From Escherichia phage vB_Eco_Sem3: a stretch of DNA of 45,137 nt. Below the pieces are notes generated by a model. It saw only the letters and a list, made by a program, of their open reading frames with translations. It was not told the origin of the DNA and did no database searches. The position numbers and the translations under genes were made by a program. Shown here in pieces: positions 4,785-42,945 of this stretch. Each line of letters begins with the position of its first letter. Positions within the stretch are counted from its first letter, which is position 1. The DNA lies in sequence record PV775410.1. One strand, given 5' to 3'.

Positions 4785-4807
4785 CTCTTCTATAGTGTCC
4801 AGTAAAT
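4785..4807 (-). promoter_or_regulatory. Phage RNAP promoter (late class, CCAGT variant) upstream of tailspike 1
   Basis: Minus strand reads ATTTACTGGACACTATAGAAGAG, close to the SP6 promoter ATTTAGGTGACACTATAGAAG. Confidence 0.7.
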
Positions 4808-6453: not shown

Positions 6454-6476
6454 CCTTCTATAGTGTCCAGTAATTA
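6454..6476 (-). promoter_or_regulatory. Phage RNAP promoter (TAATTACTGG variant) overlapping the terminase large subunit stop codon
   Basis: Minus strand reads TAATTACTGGACACTATAGAAGG. Confidence 0.6.
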
Positions 6477-21307: not shown

Positions 21308-21331
21308 TCCCTTCTATAGTGTCCAGTAAAT
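21308..21331 (-). promoter_or_regulatory. Phage RNAP promoter upstream of the major capsid gene
   Basis: Minus strand reads ATTTACTGGACACTATAGAAGGGAGA. Confidence 0.75.
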
Positions 21332-24027: not shown

Positions 24028-24489
24028 TTAGAACTTCAGGTTATACACAGTGCCAAACGGTTCAAAGCCAAGTCGCTTATACATACGTCCGACACGTTCT
24101 TCATTGATACCAGAGGCGATAGATAGACGGACCTCAGAGCATTCATTCTCATTGGCCCATTGCTTTAGGGCTTTGATGAGACGCATACCAAGAAGTGTTC
24201 CTCGCCTCTCTGGTATAATATAAAAGAGAATGTCAGAGGCAACTCTTACAGGCGTCCAAGGAGCCAACTCGTGATAGCCAGCCCACAGGAACCCTACAAT
24301 CTGCCCTTCATCTACAGCAACCCATAGGAATAAATCTTCTCTACTAAGAGATGCACAAAGGTTATGTGCACTTTGTTCTGCATTCCATGAGGCTGAGTGG
24401 TGGGCTACAACCTTGACTTCCTCTTCCACATATTTATTCCCAAGGTTTATAATCTCAGGAATATCTAGGAAGGAAGCTGGACGTATCAT
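24028..24489 (-). CDS. GNAT-family N-acetyltransferase
   Basis: Start at MIRPASFLDIPEI (ATGA-coupled to the upstream ORF); acetyl-CoA binding motif …FYIIPERRGTLLGMRLIKAL…. Confidence 0.75.
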   Translation of the reverse strand: MIRPASFLDIPEIINLGNKYVEEEVKVVAHHSASWNAEQSAHNLCASLSREDLFLWVAVDEGQIVGFLWAGYHELAPWTPVRVASDILFYIIPERRGTLLGMRLIKALKQWANENECSEVRLSIASGINEERVGRMYKRLGFEPFGTVYNLKF

Positions 24490-24656
24490 TGGACCACCAG
24501 TTGTGCTCTGACACAATCCATGATGTAACGCTTAACTTCATCAACGATTAACTCTTCATGAGTCTTAGTCACCTTAGGAGAAGAAGGCTTGAGAATCATC
24601 TCAAGCATCTCCATTCCTTCAAATGAAATCGTCGGTTTCTTCTTCGTCTGTACCAT
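24486..24656 (-). CDS. Hypothetical protein, about 56 aa
   Basis: Stop overlaps the GNAT start (ATGA), suggesting translational coupling; no clear RBS. Confidence 0.35.
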   Translation of the reverse strand: MVQTKKKPTISFEGMEMLEMILKPSSPKVTKTHEELIVDEVKRYIMDCVRAQLVVQ

Positions 24657-24933: not shown

Positions 24934-25881
24934 TCAATAAACATCAGGAACCTCCTTATCGTGGCGTAATTCAGAAACCTTGGGAAGTCTCAGGACTCCC
25001 TTGCTAGATTCCTGCAACGCCTTGACAGCGAAGATCTTCCCAATGACGTTCAGTTCGCCACCGTGCTTAATATCGTGATACATTTGGGCTGCATCCTCAT
25101 GTGACCAGCCACGACCCAGCATAGCCTTAACAGACTTGCCTCCTTTCCATTTGAAAATGAGGTTAGCTACTTTACCTTTATACTTACCTTTTCCTTCCTC
25201 CCACCCAATACAGGTTAGGTCGTAAGACACCATACGAACGATCTTCGTTTGACGATAGCCCTTGTGCCCACTTTCATACTCCACGTCAAGTTTAAACACA
25301 GCACCCTCTCGGCCTGCATCTATTTGCTCTTGCGCAAACGCTTCAACTTCTCGCTCATTATGGCAAGGAGTAATAGGAAGGATAGCGTTGTACCCGCTAA
25401 GATGAGTGCCGATGCGACGATGTAAAGCATCGTAACGTTTGAGATAAGAAACATCAGTGAATCCATCATGGAATGCCTTAATGGTTAACATATCAAAGAA
25501 GTCGATATACAGGTTGTCTTTAATCTGCTGGCCTATAAAGTCAAGTGGCTCTGTACGATTAGGGTTTACCACTCCTGACAGAGCTTCAAGATAAACATCA
25601 ACAGCCATAGATTGCAACTCACCAAGATACAACCCGACAGGAAATACACTAAATGTCTTTTCCAAGGCTTCAACATTTGCGAGTTTCTTACCAGTACGAC
25701 CAAAGATGGCAACAGCACCATCATTGCGCACCACAACAGCACTGAATATTCCATCTCGTTTCACCTGTGCATAACATGGAAAAGTAAGTTTCTTCTCAGG
25801 AACTTCACCGCGATGCTTCACCAGCATGAATGGATGATTGCGGTGGTCTTCTGGAAGACCTAGGAATTGGAAGATGTTCAT
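24934..25881 (-). CDS. ATP-dependent DNA ligase
   Basis: 315 aa; adenylation motif …AQVKRDGIFS… (KxDG) and downstream EGAVFK motif; RBS AAGGAGG. Confidence 0.85.
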   Translation of the reverse strand: MNIFQFLGLPEDHRNHPFMLVKHRGEVPEKKLTFPCYAQVKRDGIFSAVVVRNDGAVAIFGRTGKKLANVEALEKTFSVFPVGLYLGELQSMAVDVYLEALSGVVNPNRTEPLDFIGQQIKDNLYIDFFDMLTIKAFHDGFTDVSYLKRYDALHRRIGTHLSGYNAILPITPCHNEREVEAFAQEQIDAGREGAVFKLDVEYESGHKGYRQTKIVRMVSYDLTCIGWEEGKGKYKGKVANLIFKWKGGKSVKAMLGRGWSHEDAAQMYHDIKHGGELNVIGKIFAVKALQESSKGVLRLPKVSELRHDKEVPDVY

Positions 25882-26051
25882 TTCACCTCCTTCATCACAC
25901 CTTTGACTATTGCCTCTTTAAAGTGTGCTAAGTTAGAACCATATGCACTTAGGTGCCACATTGCACCTTCATCATCAGAGGTCAATACAAAACCGCGAGA
26001 GCTTACTTTATATAAGTTACCGAAGTACCCTCTATACAGTTTACCTTCCAT
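25878..26051 (-). CDS. Hypothetical protein, about 57 aa
   Basis: Start at MEGKLYRGY with RBS GAGGA; the track ORF starts upstream at TTG. Confidence 0.4.
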   Translation of the reverse strand: MEGKLYRGYFGNLYKVSSRGFVLTSDDEGAMWHLSAYGSNLAHFKEAIVKGVMKEVK

Positions 26052-26052
26052 A

Positions 26053-26556
26053 TTAAATATCCTCATCAATACATTCGTGACGATGCTTCTGGAATAACTC
26101 TTTATAATAGTCTGCCTTCTTCAAGTCTTCTTCAGTATTGAACTTCTTACCTGCACGCAGGCGATACTTAAGGGCATTACCCATGCAGTACCCAGCGAAT
26201 TGCTTTTCAGTCATACTGCGGGCAATGATAGTGATTGCCTCTACACCATCAAAGAACTCGTAGTGCTTAGGCTGAGTTACCATATTGTTGTCTAACTTAT
26301 CAGATGCAAGTTTGAATTTTTTGGAATCCCAACCTGTACCCCTCACCTCACGAAAGCACAAGTTAATGCCATCAATATCATCTATGGTTACAGGGCTATC
26401 AGGGTCAATACCAGCTTCTTTGCAGAATTGATTCCAAGGAATAGAATCTTTTTCATTACGAAATACCTTGTCTCCAACTTTAAAAGATGTTTTCTCTTGA
26501 CCACAAGTACAGTAATCATAACGCTTATGACACTTCTTACATTCATAGTGTGACAT
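26053..26556 (-). CDS. Zinc-finger plus DUF3310-like domain protein
   Basis: Start at MSHYECKKCHKRYDYCTCGQ (RBS GGAGGA); C-terminal …QPKHYEFFDGVEAITII…NALKYRLRAGKK…EDLKKADYYKEL matches my recollection of the DUF3310 pattern. Confidence 0.55.
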   Translation of the reverse strand: MSHYECKKCHKRYDYCTCGQEKTSFKVGDKVFRNEKDSIPWNQFCKEAGIDPDSPVTIDDIDGINLCFREVRGTGWDSKKFKLASDKLDNNMVTQPKHYEFFDGVEAITIIARSMTEKQFAGYCMGNALKYRLRAGKKFNTEEDLKKADYYKELFQKHRHECIDEDI

Positions 26557-26642
26557 ATTGAATCCTCCATTCACTATACAATCAAGGGCTAGTGCAATAT
26601 CATTTGGATACGCCATCCGATAAAGTCTTACCTAGCCCTTTG

Positions 26643-26662
26643 TTCTATAGTGTCAACTAAAT
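26643..26662 (-). promoter_or_regulatory. Variant phage promoter-like sequence (GTCAACT core)
   Basis: Minus strand reads ATTTAGTTGACACTATAGAA; intergenic. Confidence 0.4.
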
Positions 26663-27688
26663 CTTGCCAATCCAACGGTTGTCGCTATTGGTTTGCATCG
26701 GGACAATATGAGGTACACCCTCCAGAATAACCACACAACCTAATGCTGGCTTGTATTTAGACTCACGCCCATAGGCAAATGCACGGGATGACTCATCAAT
26801 TAAGCAGCCACCTTGCACAGCCCAATACTGTTCATGTGTATTACGTGCGTACTCCACAGACATCTTACCGTGCAAGTGACCACACACAAGGTTCATACGC
26901 TCATGCGCTGCATCTGCTAGGACAGAGCCAGCAGGTTGATGCTTGAATGCCACCTGTTCGCCATTCGGCAACTCAAGAACATGTGTATGCTGCCAATCCC
27001 ACTGGTCGCCACCTCCATTTGGGAAGAAGACTTCACGGTAGGTGCGAAGATATTGCACTGGAATACCCTTGGCGCTTGCCTTACGGAAGTGCATAGAGCC
27101 GTGATTAGAATGACACAGGCGCATCACAGGGAACATCTTGTGCAACTTGTGCATGAAGACACGAGCCTTCTCTAGCTCCATGCCAGCACTATCCAGATTC
27201 GGGTCAGAGTCATGGAAGGAGAGGGCGTGTTTATCTGCCTCATCTCCTAAGTGAACCACTGTATCTGGACGGTAACGTGCCGCGACTGCTGCAAGGAACT
27301 CTAAGGTATCTGGATGCTCATAAGGTGCATGAGTATCAGGGATTACCAATACACTTCGATGAGGCGAGTCAGGCAATGGTACAATAGCCAAATCCTCGTA
27401 GCGGTCAGGAGTCCTGAGCTTACGCTCTTCTTTGATACGCTTATCTTCTTGCAGAAGGGTCTGGTAATAATCACCATTCTTCTTGGTCTTCTTGAATTGA
27501 CCATGCCAGTATCGAGCCAACTGGCGGGTAATCTTCTTACCCACAGGGTGACACGATAATACACGTGCCATCTCATTGTAATTAACATTACCTTTCTCGT
27601 CGGTAGCTTGCTCGATTGCATCAAGTACCTCGGAGTCTTTGTACAAGCTGCGAAGCTTACCCAACTTTAACCTCCTTCTTTCTTGCAT
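26657..27688 (-). CDS. Calcineurin-like metallophosphoesterase
   Basis: Motifs …VLVIPDTHAPYEH…, …HLGDEADKH…, …GHLHG… typical of binuclear metallophosphatases; start uncertain (track ORF extends to 27796 and overlaps the endonuclease gene). Confidence 0.7.
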   Translation of the reverse strand: MQERRRLKLGKLRSLYKDSEVLDAIEQATDEKGNVNYNEMARVLSCHPVGKKITRQLARYWHGQFKKTKKNGDYYQTLLQEDKRIKEERKLRTPDRYEDLAIVPLPDSPHRSVLVIPDTHAPYEHPDTLEFLAAVAARYRPDTVVHLGDEADKHALSFHDSDPNLDSAGMELEKARVFMHKLHKMFPVMRLCHSNHGSMHFRKASAKGIPVQYLRTYREVFFPNGGGDQWDWQHTHVLELPNGEQVAFKHQPAGSVLADAAHERMNLVCGHLHGKMSVEYARNTHEQYWAVQGGCLIDESSRAFAYGRESKYKPALGCVVILEGVPHIVPMQTNSDNRWIGKI

Positions 27689-28067
27689 AAGCAAGGCGTG
27701 CCTTACGGTTCTTAGCCTCGCGCTTCTCTGCCTCCGTTTGATGTTTGTGATATAACTTATCTGTCTGAGGCGTACTATGTAACTTCCAGTATTCATATAG
27801 TCGCTCTAACCATTGAAGCTGGAAGTAACGGTTGTTACCAGCCTTACCGTAACCAGAGATAACACCCTTAATCTTTCCTTCTGCACCATTGCAGCCTCGG
27901 CATACAACAGCACGGCAGAATCCTGTCTCATGGTCATGGTCAAGTACACGGTTTATAGGAGTAACAGCCTTGAGACTGCCGCCACATAGTGGGCACTTCC
28001 ACCCTTGCTTCTCTAGCAATTCCCTCTTATAAGCTGCTACCTCCGATGATTTTAATTTGCTAACCAT
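27657..28067 (-). CDS. Endonuclease VII-like junction-resolving nuclease
   Basis: 136 aa; …WKCPLCGG…LDHDHETGFCRAVVCRGCN… matches the Cys4 plus H-N-H pattern of T4 endo VII-type enzymes. Confidence 0.7.
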   Translation of the reverse strand: MVSKLKSSEVAAYKRELLEKQGWKCPLCGGSLKAVTPINRVLDHDHETGFCRAVVCRGCNGAEGKIKGVISGYGKAGNNRYFQLQWLERLYEYWKLHSTPQTDKLYHKHQTEAEKREAKNRKARLAYARKKEVKVG

Positions 28068-29080
28068 TCTGCATCATCTCCCCACAAGATTGGGTTCTTA
28101 TCGGCTCGCCATATATCACCTTTGAATCTTGCCATGTGAGCTAGGCGACCACATTCGAGCATCAGGTCAAAAGCCTTGCCGATACGATAACCACCTCGGT
28201 AATTCTTAATCTTAACTTGTCCATGTCCGAACTTAGCCTTGTAAGCACCAAGCACTGCCATGTACAACTCTTTCTCTGTCTTACAATCTTTGAGAAGATC
28301 ATAGGCGTATTTAGCACCACGTCCAGGTATGCCAGCATAGTTATCAATATCATCACCGATAATCATCTGTGCATAATGAAACATGAGGCCAGCACCTTTA
28401 AGGTCTTTAACCTGACCATTAGCCTTACGGCGTAACTCAAGCCAACCCATAGGCTCTACCCATTTCTTCTCTTGACCCGGCTGAAGATGCCAACCGGGAA
28501 CAATCATCAAATCCTTATCTAAGGAAACGATGCAAGTATCAGAGAATGCTTTATGCTCTGGACTACCGATAGGGAACTCGTTACCTGTATCTTGCTGGAA
28601 GCGGCGGTGACTGTCCCATTGTGCAATGCTCATGAGGTCATCAGCCTCTTCTCCATCTGCCAATATTGCACCATGAACCTCTAAGAGATGCTCTCGCAAT
28701 TCATAGAAGAACGGAGGCTTCTCGGTCTTACGTTGACCCTTATAAGGTTTGGTGAAGGCTAGGCGAACTCGGAAGTTAGCTTCTGATTTCGTCATGAATA
28801 ACTTAGCAGCATCACACTCTGCTGCATACACCCAAGAGTTAAGCAAGGAGTTCACACGGTCACACGCTTGCTTACACTCAGGGGTATCTTTGATTGATGG
28901 GACTTGTCCTGACTTAACACGAGTTGTAGCTCGTACATAAGTCATGTCACTGATTGTATACCCGACGATGTAAGGTAACATATCAGCATCTATTAAAGCG
29001 ATTCGATTACCTTCAGTCGGCCACAGCAACAGGTTATTGTCTTCCGATACTGTAGCTCCGAAGTCGAAGTTTGGTCGCAT
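28052..29080 (-). CDS. 5'-3' exonuclease (T7 gp6-like, FEN family)
   Basis: Start at MRPNFDFG (RBS GAAGGAG); motifs …IALIDADMLPY… and …ADGEEADD… typical of the 5'-3' exonuclease metal-binding sites. Confidence 0.8.
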   Translation of the reverse strand: MRPNFDFGATVSEDNNLLLWPTEGNRIALIDADMLPYIVGYTISDMTYVRATTRVKSGQVPSIKDTPECKQACDRVNSLLNSWVYAAECDAAKLFMTKSEANFRVRLAFTKPYKGQRKTEKPPFFYELREHLLEVHGAILADGEEADDLMSIAQWDSHRRFQQDTGNEFPIGSPEHKAFSDTCIVSLDKDLMIVPGWHLQPGQEKKWVEPMGWLELRRKANGQVKDLKGAGLMFHYAQMIIGDDIDNYAGIPGRGAKYAYDLLKDCKTEKELYMAVLGAYKAKFGHGQVKIKNYRGGYRIGKAFDLMLECGRLAHMARFKGDIWRADKNPILWGDDAEWLAN

Positions 29081-29283
29081 GTAGGCCACTCCTTCAGCAC
29101 ATGTTCACGCAGCCACTCTTTCGCCCAATTAGCAGGGTGTATCTTATCTCGGTGACATACATACTCTGGTATTAAGTGGTTATGCAGATAAATCTCTTCA
29201 CCTAAGAGAATAGTGATAAGATAACCAAGATGTATGGATGAGAAGCTCACGTGAATCAGGAAACGTTCTTCAATAGTCGGCAT
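28993..29283 (-). CDS. Hypothetical protein, 96 aa
   Basis: RBS GGAGAA upstream of ATG; 3' part overlaps the exonuclease start by about 90 nt, so the true extent is uncertain. Confidence 0.3.
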   Translation of the reverse strand: MPTIEERFLIHVSFSSIHLGYLITILLGEEIYLHNHLIPEYVCHRDKIHPANWAKEWLREHVLKEWPTCDQTSTSELQYRKTITCCCGRLKVIESL

Positions 29284-29822: not shown

Positions 29823-29844
29823 TCTTCTATAGTGTCCAGTAAAT
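29823..29844 (-). promoter_or_regulatory. Phage RNAP promoter
   Basis: Minus strand reads ATTTACTGGACACTATAGAAGA. Confidence 0.7.
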
Positions 29845-31525: not shown

Positions 31526-31547
31526 TCCTTCTATAGTGTCCAGTAAA
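31526..31547 (-). promoter_or_regulatory. Phage RNAP promoter
   Basis: Minus strand reads ATTTACTGGACACTATAGAAGGAA. Confidence 0.7.
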
Positions 31548-31830
31548 TCATGTTAGACAAAATAAGTAGGGATAAGTTATCCATAAAGGCCACTCGTAAG
31601 TGACCTTGAGTATAACTCAGTCGTAGTTACCATCACAATCCGGGTCAATGCCAGAGAAGGCCCAGAGTACTACCATAAATAATATGATACCAAGAATAAT
31701 AAAAGCAGTTTGCATTAGTCGTAACCCTCTTCTTCATCAGGTATATCTAGTCTCATACTCCCATAACAAGCAAGCATAAGGAGTGTAAGAAAGAGAGTGA
31801 AGAATAGGCAAATAATGTCAAGCCTATCCA

Positions 31831-35374: not shown

Positions 35375-36064
35375 TTAGATATTCACGTATGTTTCTTCAG
35401 TAACAATAGGGAGGTACAGTAACTCTTCATCATTCAAGATGTGAAGACCTTTCAACCCTTGCTTACGAATAATACCTTCTATAGTGTCGGCAAAATGCTT
35501 ATTAATTACACGTCGTTGCGTACCGTGTTCTGTGATTGCATGGTCAACATCCATGATTCGTACAGGTACATTTGGATGCATCATGGCTTCGCCAATCTTT
35601 ACCATAGCTTGTCCTGTGGATTTACCAAGAGCACGAGTGTTAAACTGCGTAACACCTAGTGCAGTGCCACATTGCTTAATCATTTCACTTTGAGTCTTAC
35701 CAGTGATTACATTGCGACGCTCTTTCTTGAGTGTGGTTTTCTTTTCTGCCATGTACTCTGCTAGTGTTTGAGGACCAGCACCATAATAAAGAGGGTATAA
35801 TAGCATTTTATGCAGCTGGCGGGCACACTTATCGCAAATCTCATCGTGTACGCACTTACATTGATTGCTTACCTCTCCAATCTTCTCAAGGTAGTTATGT
35901 GCTGATTCCTTTTGATAAGCCTGTCTAATACCATTACTGTACTCTACATAGTAGCTGTTTTCACTTACATTAGTCACAGTACCACGGCAACGATATCTAC
36001 GTGAGGTTACATTGATGTTACGAACATAATCACCTACATTCAATACTAATTTATACATAATCAA
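35375..36064 (-). CDS. Hypothetical protein, 229 aa, with Cys cluster (C-x-C-x5-C-x2-C)
   Basis: …NQCKCVHDEICDKCARQ… suggests a zinc-binding site; no recognisable catalytic motif. Confidence 0.55.
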   Translation of the reverse strand: MIMYKLVLNVGDYVRNINVTSRRYRCRGTVTNVSENSYYVEYSNGIRQAYQKESAHNYLEKIGEVSNQCKCVHDEICDKCARQLHKMLLYPLYYGAGPQTLAEYMAEKKTTLKKERRNVITGKTQSEMIKQCGTALGVTQFNTRALGKSTGQAMVKIGEAMMHPNVPVRIMDVDHAITEHGTQRRVINKHFADTIEGIIRKQGLKGLHILNDEELLYLPIVTEETYVNI

Positions 36065-36292: not shown

Positions 36293-38280
36293 TAAAACTC
36301 CTGTTCATCGTCAAAAGTTGTCTCTTCTATAGTGTCCGGTAAATCCGGCACTTCTTGTTGCCTTGCTTCACCTGTATCAAATGACTTAGTACGGGCTTGT
36401 GGTTCCATTAAACGTCCGGTTTGAATGTCACCCTTAAGCATGACCTTGGTTCCAGTGTAGATACCTTGGTCGCGGTCTTTGACACATGAGATGTACGTGG
36501 TAGTCCGTTCATCAAGCGTTTCAGCTCTTGTATTACGCTCAATCCCCAAGGCGTAAGATGCCCAGAATCCGATAGCGCCTGAACCTCGGAAGTCAGAAAG
36601 GATAACCTCGCCACCTTCTTCGTGTTGGGTACGGTTTGCCGGAGGACGTGTAAGGTGTGATACAAGGAATATAGTAACCGGGTGTCGGTCTTTGATAGTA
36701 CCAATCCGCTTGACGCATTCATCAAGTGCACCAACCTTCCCACCAAAAGCACGCTCATCTAATTTAATCCCCGTTAAGTTATCAATGATGATATTAGAAA
36801 TGCCCATAGCCTCAAACTCTAGGCAAGTTTGCTCTACCTTTTCCATCGAATAGTCACCCTCTAGGTCAGCTACAAACAGCTTACCTGTATCAGCTACATA
36901 ATCAATGGCGGCGTTAGCCTCTTCCTCGGTGTAGTCGAACACCTCACGGTATCCATCTTCTTTCGGGTCGTTGGTTGGCGGTAACTCAATACGCTTATCA
37001 ATCCACTTGCCGATAAAAGCACGGGACACCTTGACCATCGGGTCTTCTGTAGAAATGATGCCTACAGATTCACCGTGTTCTTCAATGAGGTGCTTAACTA
37101 CTTCACGAAGGAACTCAGTCTTACCCACACCAGAGCCTGCGCCTACAATGATAAGTTGGTTCTTACGAATACCTAGCGTTACCTTGTTCAGCTTAGGCCA
37201 AGGCCATGATAGTCCTTGCTCTGGACGTGCAGCCTTGAGCTTATCCCTTTGAGATGCGATAGATTTAATCTGGCTACCAAAGACTTCATCAGATGACTTG
37301 GCATTAAACCATGCATCTACAAACTCTTTAGCCTTGCCAGCCATCAATGCCTTGTTAGCATCTTTGCAACCAGATGGATATTCGAGGATGTAGGATTTGC
37401 CAGGAAACAGGCGAGCAGCTTGTTGGTTCTGCTTCTGCCCCACCTCGTCGCCATCAAAGCCCCATATAATCTTCTTGAATTGGGCTATGTGCTCACGGTT
37501 TTGCACTATCTCTTCAAGGCAAGACTCACCTTTATTGACAGACCATACATGGTATGGCTGACCTTCCCACTTAGTACCTTTGGCAGAATCAAGGAGCATC
37601 TGCTGCGCTGCTAGTGCATCAAGTTCACCGCCTACAATAAGCAAGCAATCCTTTCGTCTCCCCTTGTCTAACACGTGAGACAAAGTATTCATACCGAAAA
37701 GATCTTGCATGCCAAAGAGTTTACCTAAATGACCAAACTTAAAATCTTTAGGTAATGTGCGACACTTAGCTCCTACTAGCTCACCTTTCTCGAAGCGTGG
37801 ATAGTAATGCCGCGAGACTCTACCCTCTTCATCGTGTCCGACACGTACATCATACAATGCGCAAATGTCGCCGCGAATGTGTCTGGAAACAAGGTTCTTA
37901 CGCTTAAGCGTGAGGAACCATTCAACATCAAGTTTCCACTCTGCTTCTTGGTCTGCCCTTTCTTGCTCATTCATGACCTCCCAACGGTCTTTCATACGCA
38001 TACCACCAAGAGCGATGGCGCGTAGCTTAGGGTCGCTTATCTTCCCTTCCTTCTCCATCTCTTTGAATTGAGAAGGTGTGTATTTGATATTGCCAGTAAT
38101 AGGCAACTCGGTTATCTCGATGCCTCCCTCTGGCTTATGATAGTAGGGTCTACCATTATCATGAAAGTGACCACGGTTACAATAGCCAGCACCATCATCA
38201 AATATCATGAGATGATTGCCGGATTTATCGTGCCCATTCTTCTGGCAGGCAGGGCACGGGATGTTATTAATAATAGCCAT
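36292..38280 (-). CDS. Bifunctional DNA primase/helicase (T7 gp4-like)
   Basis: N-terminal zinc ribbon (…CPACQKNGHDKSGNHLMIFDDGAGYCNRGHF…), Walker A …VGAGSGVGKTEF…, acidic C-terminus ending …DDEQEF. Confidence 0.9.
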   Translation of the reverse strand: MAIINNIPCPACQKNGHDKSGNHLMIFDDGAGYCNRGHFHDNGRPYYHKPEGGIEITELPITGNIKYTPSQFKEMEKEGKISDPKLRAIALGGMRMKDRWEVMNEQERADQEAEWKLDVEWFLTLKRKNLVSRHIRGDICALYDVRVGHDEEGRVSRHYYPRFEKGELVGAKCRTLPKDFKFGHLGKLFGMQDLFGMNTLSHVLDKGRRKDCLLIVGGELDALAAQQMLLDSAKGTKWEGQPYHVWSVNKGESCLEEIVQNREHIAQFKKIIWGFDGDEVGQKQNQQAARLFPGKSYILEYPSGCKDANKALMAGKAKEFVDAWFNAKSSDEVFGSQIKSIASQRDKLKAARPEQGLSWPWPKLNKVTLGIRKNQLIIVGAGSGVGKTEFLREVVKHLIEEHGESVGIISTEDPMVKVSRAFIGKWIDKRIELPPTNDPKEDGYREVFDYTEEEANAAIDYVADTGKLFVADLEGDYSMEKVEQTCLEFEAMGISNIIIDNLTGIKLDERAFGGKVGALDECVKRIGTIKDRHPVTIFLVSHLTRPPANRTQHEEGGEVILSDFRGSGAIGFWASYALGIERNTRAETLDERTTTYISCVKDRDQGIYTGTKVMLKGDIQTGRLMEPQARTKSFDTGEARQQEVPDLPDTIEETTFDDEQEF
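36321..36344 (-). promoter_or_regulatory. Phage RNAP promoter, CCGGT class
   Basis: Minus strand reads ATTTACCGGACACTATAGAAGAGA; embedded in the 3' end of the primase/helicase gene. Confidence 0.65.
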
Positions 38281-42922: not shown

Positions 42923-42945
42923 TTCTCTTATAGTGTCAGCTAAAT
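42923..42945 (-). promoter_or_regulatory. Degenerate phage promoter-like sequence (GTCAGCT variant)
   Basis: Minus strand reads ATTTAGCTGACACTATAAGAGAA; lies upstream of the RNAP gene, where a phage promoter would not be expected to act early. Confidence 0.3.

Follow-up and report, generated by a model that had tools for sequence, protein, structure and literature searches.

Two adjacent genes in the DNA of Escherichia phage vB_Eco_Sem3 (sequence record PV775410.1), one for a calcineurin-like metallophosphoesterase (MPE) and one for a protein with a DUF3310 domain, have described counterparts in other phages. The whole stretch that was analysed, 45,137 nucleotides (nt) long, is called the window throughout this paper. 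Gp1.7 of phage T7, which itself matches the DUF3310 family PF11753, is reported (Tran et al., 2008-2012) to be a metal-independent dTMP/dGMP kinase that lacks a P-loop and forms a large oligomer. Gp47 of mycobacteriophage Bxb1 is an MPE that is needed for phage DNA replication and also acts as a recombination directionality factor (RDF); its structural neighbours were reported to be Mre11, DP1 and LpxH. In the cluster-A mycobacteriophage A10ZJ24, gp48, which belongs to the same MPE group as the Bxb1 protein, is a phosphodiesterase that degrades DNA in vitro and is needed by the phage to replicate its DNA in M. tuberculosis (PMC12287305). Here, the two genes of the window are read as separate genes of DNA and nucleotide metabolism, with the MPE acting on DNA and the DUF3310 protein being the gp1.7 counterpart, and not as a functional pair; this combined reading is offered as one that could hold or fail with about equal chance. 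What was established directly for the two genes comprises their families, the intactness of the motifs, the class of fold, the starts of the genes, the promoter and the synteny; that the MPE acts on DNA, that its N-terminal domain binds DNA and that the DUF3310 protein is a kinase is inferred.

Across 25800-28100, nucleotide identity of the window is 100% with Klebsiella phage vB_Ka_Sem4 and with Escherichia phages vB_Eco_Sem1 and Sem2, and 99% with Vectrevirus VEc3 (Molineuxvirinae, SP6/K1-5 group); by this comparison, the window is the genome of an SP6/K1-5-like coliphage of the genus Vectrevirus. In the deposited identical or near-identical records, the two products are named "phosphoesterase" and "nucleotide kinase", respectively. 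The genes and the main parts of the MPE are as follows.

26657-27664, minus strand: MPE gene, 335 amino acids (aa), TTG start, as favoured by phrog_221, homologue lengths and the RefSeq VEc3 start
27671-27677, minus strand: Shine-Dalgarno sequence AAGGAGG, read from the sequence, 6 nt upstream of the MPE TTG start
27365-27664, minus strand: N-terminal ~100 aa of the MPE, helical and basic, with the helix-turn-helix (HTH)-like pattern YNEMARVLS...ITRQLARYW and then a K/R-rich linker
26660-27364, minus strand: calcineurin-like catalytic core of the MPE, residues 101-335, with motifs I-V and an extra segment
26053-26556, minus strand: DUF3310 / T7 gp1.7-like gene, 167 aa (PF11753, phrog_1689); the longest open reading frame (ORF) starts at 26616

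Both genes are real and, like the whole gene block, lie on the minus strand; they are read as part of the phage middle (class II-like) region. An earlier reading made from the letters of the window (the sequence-only reading) had placed them between the ligase gene (24934-25881) and the nuclease genes, here endonuclease VII and an exonuclease, and had described the first product as a calcineurin-like phosphoesterase with all metal motifs and the second as a zinc-ribbon protein with a DUF3310-like C-terminus. The location and the assignments as a calcineurin-like phosphoesterase and as a Cys-rich protein with a DUF3310 C-terminus were borne out; the gene starts that it used, 27688 and 26616, are both probably too far upstream, and 27664 and 26556 are favoured on Shine-Dalgarno sequences, protein lengths and RefSeq.

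The MPE is a member of the calcineurin-like metallophosphoesterase superfamily with intact motifs. The profile phrog_221 ("metallo-phosphoesterase") matched the long form of the ORF with an E-value of 2.1e-105 (residues 42-378; profile positions 13-358 of 367). Pfam Metallophos (PF00149, cut-off 21.5 bits) gave 21.6 bits with the 335-aa protein and 21.3 bits with the 379-aa ORF, and, with E-values of up to 1 allowed, matches were obtained for 29 of the 35 members of the family. The metal motifs are D110-x-H112, G140-D141-E-x-D144, S186-N187-H188, H242 and G262-H263-x-H265, in the third of which S186 replaces the G of GNH(D/E). When 35 homologues with identities down to 48% were aligned, each of the five motifs was invariant or at least 90% conserved, and an extra segment that follows motif II, H146-x2-S-x-H151-D-S-D-P-x-L-x-S-A-G-x-E-L, is invariant. 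The longest ORF reaches 27796 (379 aa). The start is most likely TTG 27664 rather than ATG 27688, because AAGGAGG stands 6 nt upstream of it, the gene then overlaps the stop codon of the endonuclease VII gene (TAA 27659-27657) by 8 nt, nearly all full-length homologues are 330-340 aa long, and the equivalent start is annotated in RefSeq VEc3. The 8-nt overlap suggests translational coupling of the two genes.

Gene calls for the MPE differ among close relatives. In Escherichia phage K1E (BFVD A0A2I4Q1Z7, 104 aa, and A0A2I4Q1Y4, 237 aa) and Klebsiella phage IME184 (P0046, 229 aa), its annotation is broken up or lacks the N-terminal part, the N-terminal domain being an ORF of its own; frameshift, sequencing error or real variation may underlie these forms. 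In GenBank PV775411 (vB_Ka_Sem4), which is identical to the window, the phosphoesterase coding sequence (CDS) is stretched to an upstream ATG (379 aa), the endonuclease VII gene (window 27657-28067) lacks annotation, and a 43-aa "hypothetical protein" is called within the endonuclease VII ORF in another frame.

The AlphaFold2 (AF2) model of the MPE is confident (pLDDT, the predicted local distance difference test, 84.5) and shows ~80 mostly N-terminal residues of helical structure ahead of a standard core, a four-layer alpha/beta sandwich of the calcineurin type. In fold comparison, the highest scores were obtained with the proofreading exonuclease DP1 of PolD (13.3), MJ0936 (13.2) and YfcE (13.0), followed by the Pol delta B-subunit (12.3) and by LpxH, Mre11 and SbcD (11.3). 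PPP protein phosphatases (9.8 or less), the cyclic nucleotide monophosphate (cNMP) phosphodiesterase Rv0805 (9.5) and the phosphatase domain of CthPnkp (9.0) scored lower. Identity to the PolD small subunit DP1, Mre11/SbcD and MJ0936/YfcE is 8-16%, and the window MPE appears to differ from them in having neither OB nor capping domains. Searches of the PDB by sequence, with single sequences and with profiles, gave no informative match for the MPE or the DUF3310 protein. Among the genes annotated in 10 kb of flanking sequence of VEc3, a close relative, there is no Rad50/SbcC partner.

The N-terminal module is predicted to contain helices at residues 10-20, 29-37, 47-57 and 71-80. Across the family, the N-terminal 100 residues have a median isoelectric point (pI) of 9.55 and a net charge of +6, compared with a pI of 6.3 for the core, and DNA binding by this module seems plausible. 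Most family representatives are stand-alone cores of ~235 aa, and the module is therefore a subfamily addition. Other MPE relatives carry other N-terminal domains: an unrelated HTH domain was identified on P0307 (HTH_24, 27.4 bits, E 2.4e-6) and more weakly on P0266, and the N-termini of P0271 and P0277 are HTH-like by eye only. Since none of these aligns to the N-terminal domain of the window protein, they are independent modules.

Homologues of the MPE were found by tblastn in 660 phage records, mostly Autographiviridae-type podoviruses of Klebsiella, Escherichia, Pectobacterium, Pseudomonas, Aeromonas, Vibrio and Proteus, together with one Pelagibacter podovirus, and a full HMMER scan returned 3,088 clusters at 50% identity, 778 of them with E 1e-30 or better. 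In the window, the gene is embedded among the following genes of DNA metabolism.

28052-29089, minus strand: 5'-3' exonuclease gene, first in the transcription order of the region
27657-28067, minus strand: endonuclease VII gene (PF02945 E 1.5e-12; phrog_423 E 2e-47), directly upstream of the MPE gene and overlapping it
24934-25881, minus strand: ATP-dependent DNA ligase gene, in which DNA ligase domains were found

The order of transcription is exonuclease, endonuclease VII, MPE, phage promoter, DUF3310 gene, a 57-aa ORF and DNA ligase. The conservation of this order was examined in 80 IMG/VR loci, 75 of which have enough upstream sequence; the loci were not dereplicated, so that close relatives inflate the counts. 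In 66 of these 75, the gene directly upstream of the MPE gene, in the same orientation, encodes an endonuclease VII homologue, as it does in 38 of 46 when only MPEs less than 60% identical are considered. The exonuclease precedes the MPE and the ligase follows it in most loci where each was detected.

In Pectobacterium phage PP1 (JQ837901 / NC_019542; L034:5779-6825), residues 1-76 of endonuclease VII are continued, without a change of frame, by the MPE sequence starting at about residue 62, as a single 348-aa ORF. Phage POP72 is 99.9% identical to PP1, has ~364 extra nt at this point, and keeps the endonuclease and phosphoesterase genes separate. The PP1 fusion is either a viable natural deletion, in which the C-terminal half of endonuclease VII and the N-terminal domain of the MPE were lost, or an assembly error.

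Comparison of family profiles by hhalign aligned the MPE family with Bxb1 gp47 over the whole core (probability 88%, E 3e-6, 191 columns), which identifies the window protein as a remote homologue, with ~22% identity. Bxb1 gp47 and A10ZJ24 gp48 differ from it in being 255 aa long, without the N-terminal basic domain, and motif I is DTQ in gp47 and DxH in the window protein. The RDF role of gp47 depends on a serine integrase. Such an integrase is not to be expected in the lytic phage of the window. Some MPE homologues also contain inteins of ~300 aa exactly inside the catalytic motifs, with C...N|C junctions at two independent sites: motif I in P0277, where the intein has a LAGLIDADG_3 domain, and motif II, after GDE, in P0241 and P0271. 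Conserved sites in proteins of replication and repair are where inteins tend to be inserted.

Based on synteny, the DP1/Mre11-like fold neighbours, the basic N-terminal domain, the HTH domains of relatives, the homology to Bxb1 gp47 and the inteins, the MPE is most likely a DNA phosphodiesterase of the replication/recombination module. It would be an active two-metal phosphodiesterase of the calcineurin fold that cleaves DNA as an exo- or endonuclease beside the apparently coupled upstream endonuclease VII and the 5'-3' exonuclease, in phage DNA replication or recombination or in the breakdown of host DNA, and its attachment to nucleic acid would be provided by the first 100 residues, which are basic and HTH-like. 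Several observations weigh on the other side. The similarity to Bxb1 gp47 is remote, and the exonuclease activity of gp47 was weak, its authors not having excluded contamination. The fold scores leave room for a small-molecule substrate. Searches of PHROGs and Pfam with the N-terminal domain gave nothing significant, the best match being HTH_Tnp_1 with E 0.068 in one member. A literature search for assays of this MPE family in Autographiviridae (SP6, K1-5 and phiKMV-like phages) returned genome descriptions only. In Drulisvirus KpV71, the MPE gene lies away from endonuclease VII, after the DNA polymerase gene and an HNH homing endonuclease gene, and the endonuclease VII and DUF3310 genes are ~3.5-3.7 kb downstream of it. 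The "endonuclease" upstream of the MPE in KpV71 was considered as an endonuclease VII orthologue and rejected, being an HNH_3 homing endonuclease without similarity to endonuclease VII. A more specific proposal, that the MPE is an unrecognised third nuclease of SP6-, KP34- and phiKMV-type podoviruses that works with endonuclease VII, and that variable N-terminal HTH modules target it to DNA, is made tentatively, as the chances are against it. Less likely is a variant in which host nucleases are countered by a cassette of MPE, kinase and ligase that heals and seals ends.

The DUF3310 protein matched PF11753 with 87 bits against a cut-off of 24 (E 9e-25) and phrog_1689, "nucleotide kinase", with E 2e-44. 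Its start is most likely ATG 26556 rather than 26616, because a GGAGGA Shine-Dalgarno sequence (26568-26563, minus strand) stands 6 nt upstream, the closest cluster representative, P0121, is 167 aa long and 99% identical, and RefSeq VEc3 has the same start. In PV775411, the CDS is called 20 codons longer than in the RefSeq VEc3 version. The protein can be divided into three parts.

26503-26541, minus strand: small Cys4 knuckle C6-x2-C9-x6-C16-x-C18 (MSHYECKKCHKRYDYCTCG); some relatives start with MSHYxCxxCxxRYD
26302-26487, minus strand: small beta-barrel, residues ~24-85 (FKVGDKVFR...), KOW/SH3-like
26062-26280, minus strand: DUF3310 domain of three helices, residues 93-165, with 64% identity to the T7 gp1.7 C-terminus

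What was observed for the putative "zinc ribbon" of the sequence-only reading is the small Cys4 knuckle, which is conserved only in a subset of homologues, including the gp1.7 homologue of the T7-like Yersinia phage Rambo (P0232). The FKVGDKV barrel is present or absent among DUF3310 homologues, so that the N-terminal half is modular, and the DUF3310 domain has 23 invariant columns in 56 sequences. The C-terminal 73 residues match the C-terminus of T7 gp1.7 at the identity given above with E 1e-30 in BLASTP and 5e-27 in tblastn. When T7 was searched with eight queries from this region, namely seven proteins and, in addition, the C-terminal part of the DUF3310 protein, the DUF3310 protein alone gave a significant match, to gene 1.7. 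Given this identity, the protein is part of the T7 gene set and most likely the counterpart of gp1.7. The two are alike in PF11753 membership, a Cys-rich N-terminus, the lack of a P-loop and a position near the ligase gene behind phage promoters; they differ between the Cys knuckle and DUF3310, where the window protein has the KOW/SH3-like barrel and T7 an unrelated second Cys-rich stretch. No Walker A / P-loop motif GxxxxGK[ST] is present in the 167-aa sequence, and no P-loop Pfam family matched it. The description of both genes as accessory to the core T7 set is therefore right in that T7 lacks an MPE homologue (tblastn and profile search) and wrong for the DUF3310 gene, which is a homologue of T7 gene 1.7; nor is the MPE sporadic, as its spread and its endonuclease VII adjacency show.

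As the gp1.7 counterpart, the DUF3310 protein would be a P-loop-less kinase that converts dTMP and dGMP from degraded host DNA to diphosphates for phage DNA synthesis. The genes found downstream of the MPE are informative in this respect. At the position equivalent to window 26053-26616, surveyed in 79 loci (L006-L085), 49 loci have one of three gene types and never two of them together: a DUF3310 protein in 18, a P-loop deoxynucleoside monophosphate (dNMP) kinase (phrog_139, E down to 3.5e-44) in 22 and a PF18909 dATP/dGTP-diphosphohydrolase-like protein in 9. The other 30 loci have none of the three, including KpV71, whose DUF3310 gene is 3.7 kb away. The PF18909 protein of locus L030 has the FKVGDKV barrel in common with the window protein, and homology between DUF3310 and PF18909 themselves was not detectable. 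This pattern of replacement supports a nucleotide-pool role of the window DUF3310 protein.

A possible but doubtful alternative is that the DUF3310 protein resembles SaV, an early protein interfering with a host process, and that the name "nucleotide kinase" has been over-propagated. It draws on the facts that tell against kinase activity: T7 gp1.7 is the one characterised protein behind the kinase label; the AF2 model gave no informative fold match and none to known kinases; and the N-terminal modules are shuffled. SaV, a lactococcal phage protein with DUF3310, mediates sensitivity to AbiV, which acts through it, and has toxic effects in both L. lactis and E. coli (PMC8306868), and mycobacteriophage DUF3310 proteins are cytotoxic when overexpressed (PMC9339283); toxicity or a link to AbiV is all that these other DUF3310 proteins are known for. 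The Pfam domain is common to SaV and the window protein, but their similarity is only distant, and across the domain the window protein is far closer to the experimentally characterised gp1.7. The same slot is held by a P-loop dNMP kinase in relatives, and toxicity would be compatible with kinase activity. Correspondence to gp1.7 is thus preferred for the DUF3310 protein.

A phage promoter separates the two genes of the window, in which SP6-type promoters are a recurrent element.

26643-26662, minus strand: phage RNA polymerase promoter ATTTAGTTGACACTATAGAA, which precedes the DUF3310 gene and shares bases with the stop codon of the MPE gene (TAG 26659-26657)
4788-4807, 6456-6475, 21312-21331 and 29825-29844, minus strand: further SP6-type promoters of the consensus ATTTACTGGACACTATAGAA
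31066-31085, 31529-31548, 35477-35496, 36325-36344 and 42926-42945, minus strand: the remaining SP6-type promoters of the same consensus

Such promoters number ten in the window, all on the minus strand, and chance alone would be expected to give none. Ahead of the DUF3310 gene, the promoter has a variant sequence (ATTTAGTTGAC...), and its +1, which we take by analogy with the SP6 promoter, is predicted to be G 26645. The DUF3310 gene is most likely transcribed from this predicted promoter of its own, and since the promoter lies between them, the two genes are not a tight operon pair. A conserved pairing of MPE and DUF3310 was considered and rejected, as DUF3310 is beside the MPE in only 18 of the 79 loci and the KpV71 genes are far apart.

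The slot survey also bears on other explanations of the MPE. The enzyme could act on the free nucleotide pool as a pyrophosphatase, nucleotidase or oligonucleotidase that supplies dNMPs to the adjacent kinase, for which the neighbouring gene and the small-molecule enzymes among the fold matches might speak. None of the three nucleotide genes is beside the MPE in 30 of the 79 loci, against the far more regular adjacency of endonuclease VII, and a DNA-binding-type N-terminal module is unexpected on a small-molecule enzyme; this function is therefore regarded as unlikely. Slightly less probable still is an end-healing enzyme, a 3'-phosphatase or 2',3'-cyclic phosphodiesterase of the bacterial Pnkp/lambda phosphatase type, that prepares DNA or RNA ends for the ligase encoded nearby. 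The ligase carries DNA ligase domains, the neighbouring "kinase" is a homologue of mononucleotide and not of polynucleotide kinases, and Pnkp-type and PPP-type folds rank below DP1 and Mre11. Membership in PdeM, the ligase-associated DNA damage response endonuclease (NCBIfam TIGR04123), was rejected, as the match covered 33 residues about motifs I-II and its 21.9 bits fell below the required 150.

The sequence-only reading had named two roles for such phosphoesterases, countering nucleotide-based host signalling and processing DNA ends. For the former, the MPE would destroy immune signals (CBASS cyclic oligonucleotides, Pycsar cCMP/cUMP, Thoeris gcADPR or the cyclic oligoadenylates of type III CRISPR) as a counter-defence. 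The anti-signalling phage enzymes Acb1 and Apyc1 are, like the MPE, phage-encoded phosphodiesterases, but they have other folds, 2H in Acb1 and metallo-beta-lactamase in Apyc1, and no evidence ties the MPE to signalling molecules. Its place in the nuclease/ligase block is conserved across distant subfamilies, unlike that of sporadic anti-defence genes; its N-terminal module is basic and its relatives carry HTH domains; cNMP phosphodiesterases fall below DP1, YfcE and Mre11 in the fold ranking; and PADLOC defence-system profiles gave no match to it. Nothing was found in support of this role, which is improbable, and DNA processing is the one of the two favoured by synteny, fold neighbours, the basic N-terminal domain, HTH relatives and Bxb1 gp47. 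A protein Ser/Thr/Tyr phosphatase like lambda phosphatase, to which the common superfamily and "phosphatase 2a-like" in some database names might point, is the most improbable of all, and the PPP signatures GDxVDRG and GNHE are not present in the MPE.

Two further genes complete the neighbourhood.

25878-26051, minus strand: 57-aa ORF between the DUF3310 gene and the ligase gene (phrog_15259, unknown function, E 3e-37)
24028-24516, minus strand: GNAT acetyltransferase gene downstream of the ligase gene (PF00583 E 2e-10, phrog_1249)

The 57-aa ORF was detectable in only 4 of 80 related loci and is thus a variable small gene. The acetyltransferase gene occupies the same relative position in 40 of the 80 MPE-bearing loci, down to 24-37% identity.

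For the window itself there is little new in these assignments, as both genes are ordinary genes of DNA metabolism and already annotated in public records. The MPE family is of wider interest: it is large, syntenic with recombination nucleases and invaded by inteins at its catalytic motifs, and the literature search brought up no published assay of it in the T7 supergroup. In non-T7 Autographiviridae the MPE is a conserved part of the nuclease block, and it is more likely to be directed at DNA than to degrade signals. To assign it a biochemical activity would close a gap in what is mapped of DNA metabolism in SP6-/KP34-like phages, many of them in use for phage therapy, and, if it is indeed a third nuclease, a function would be given to a gene conserved in hundreds of therapeutic-candidate phages of Klebsiella, E. 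coli and Pseudomonas.

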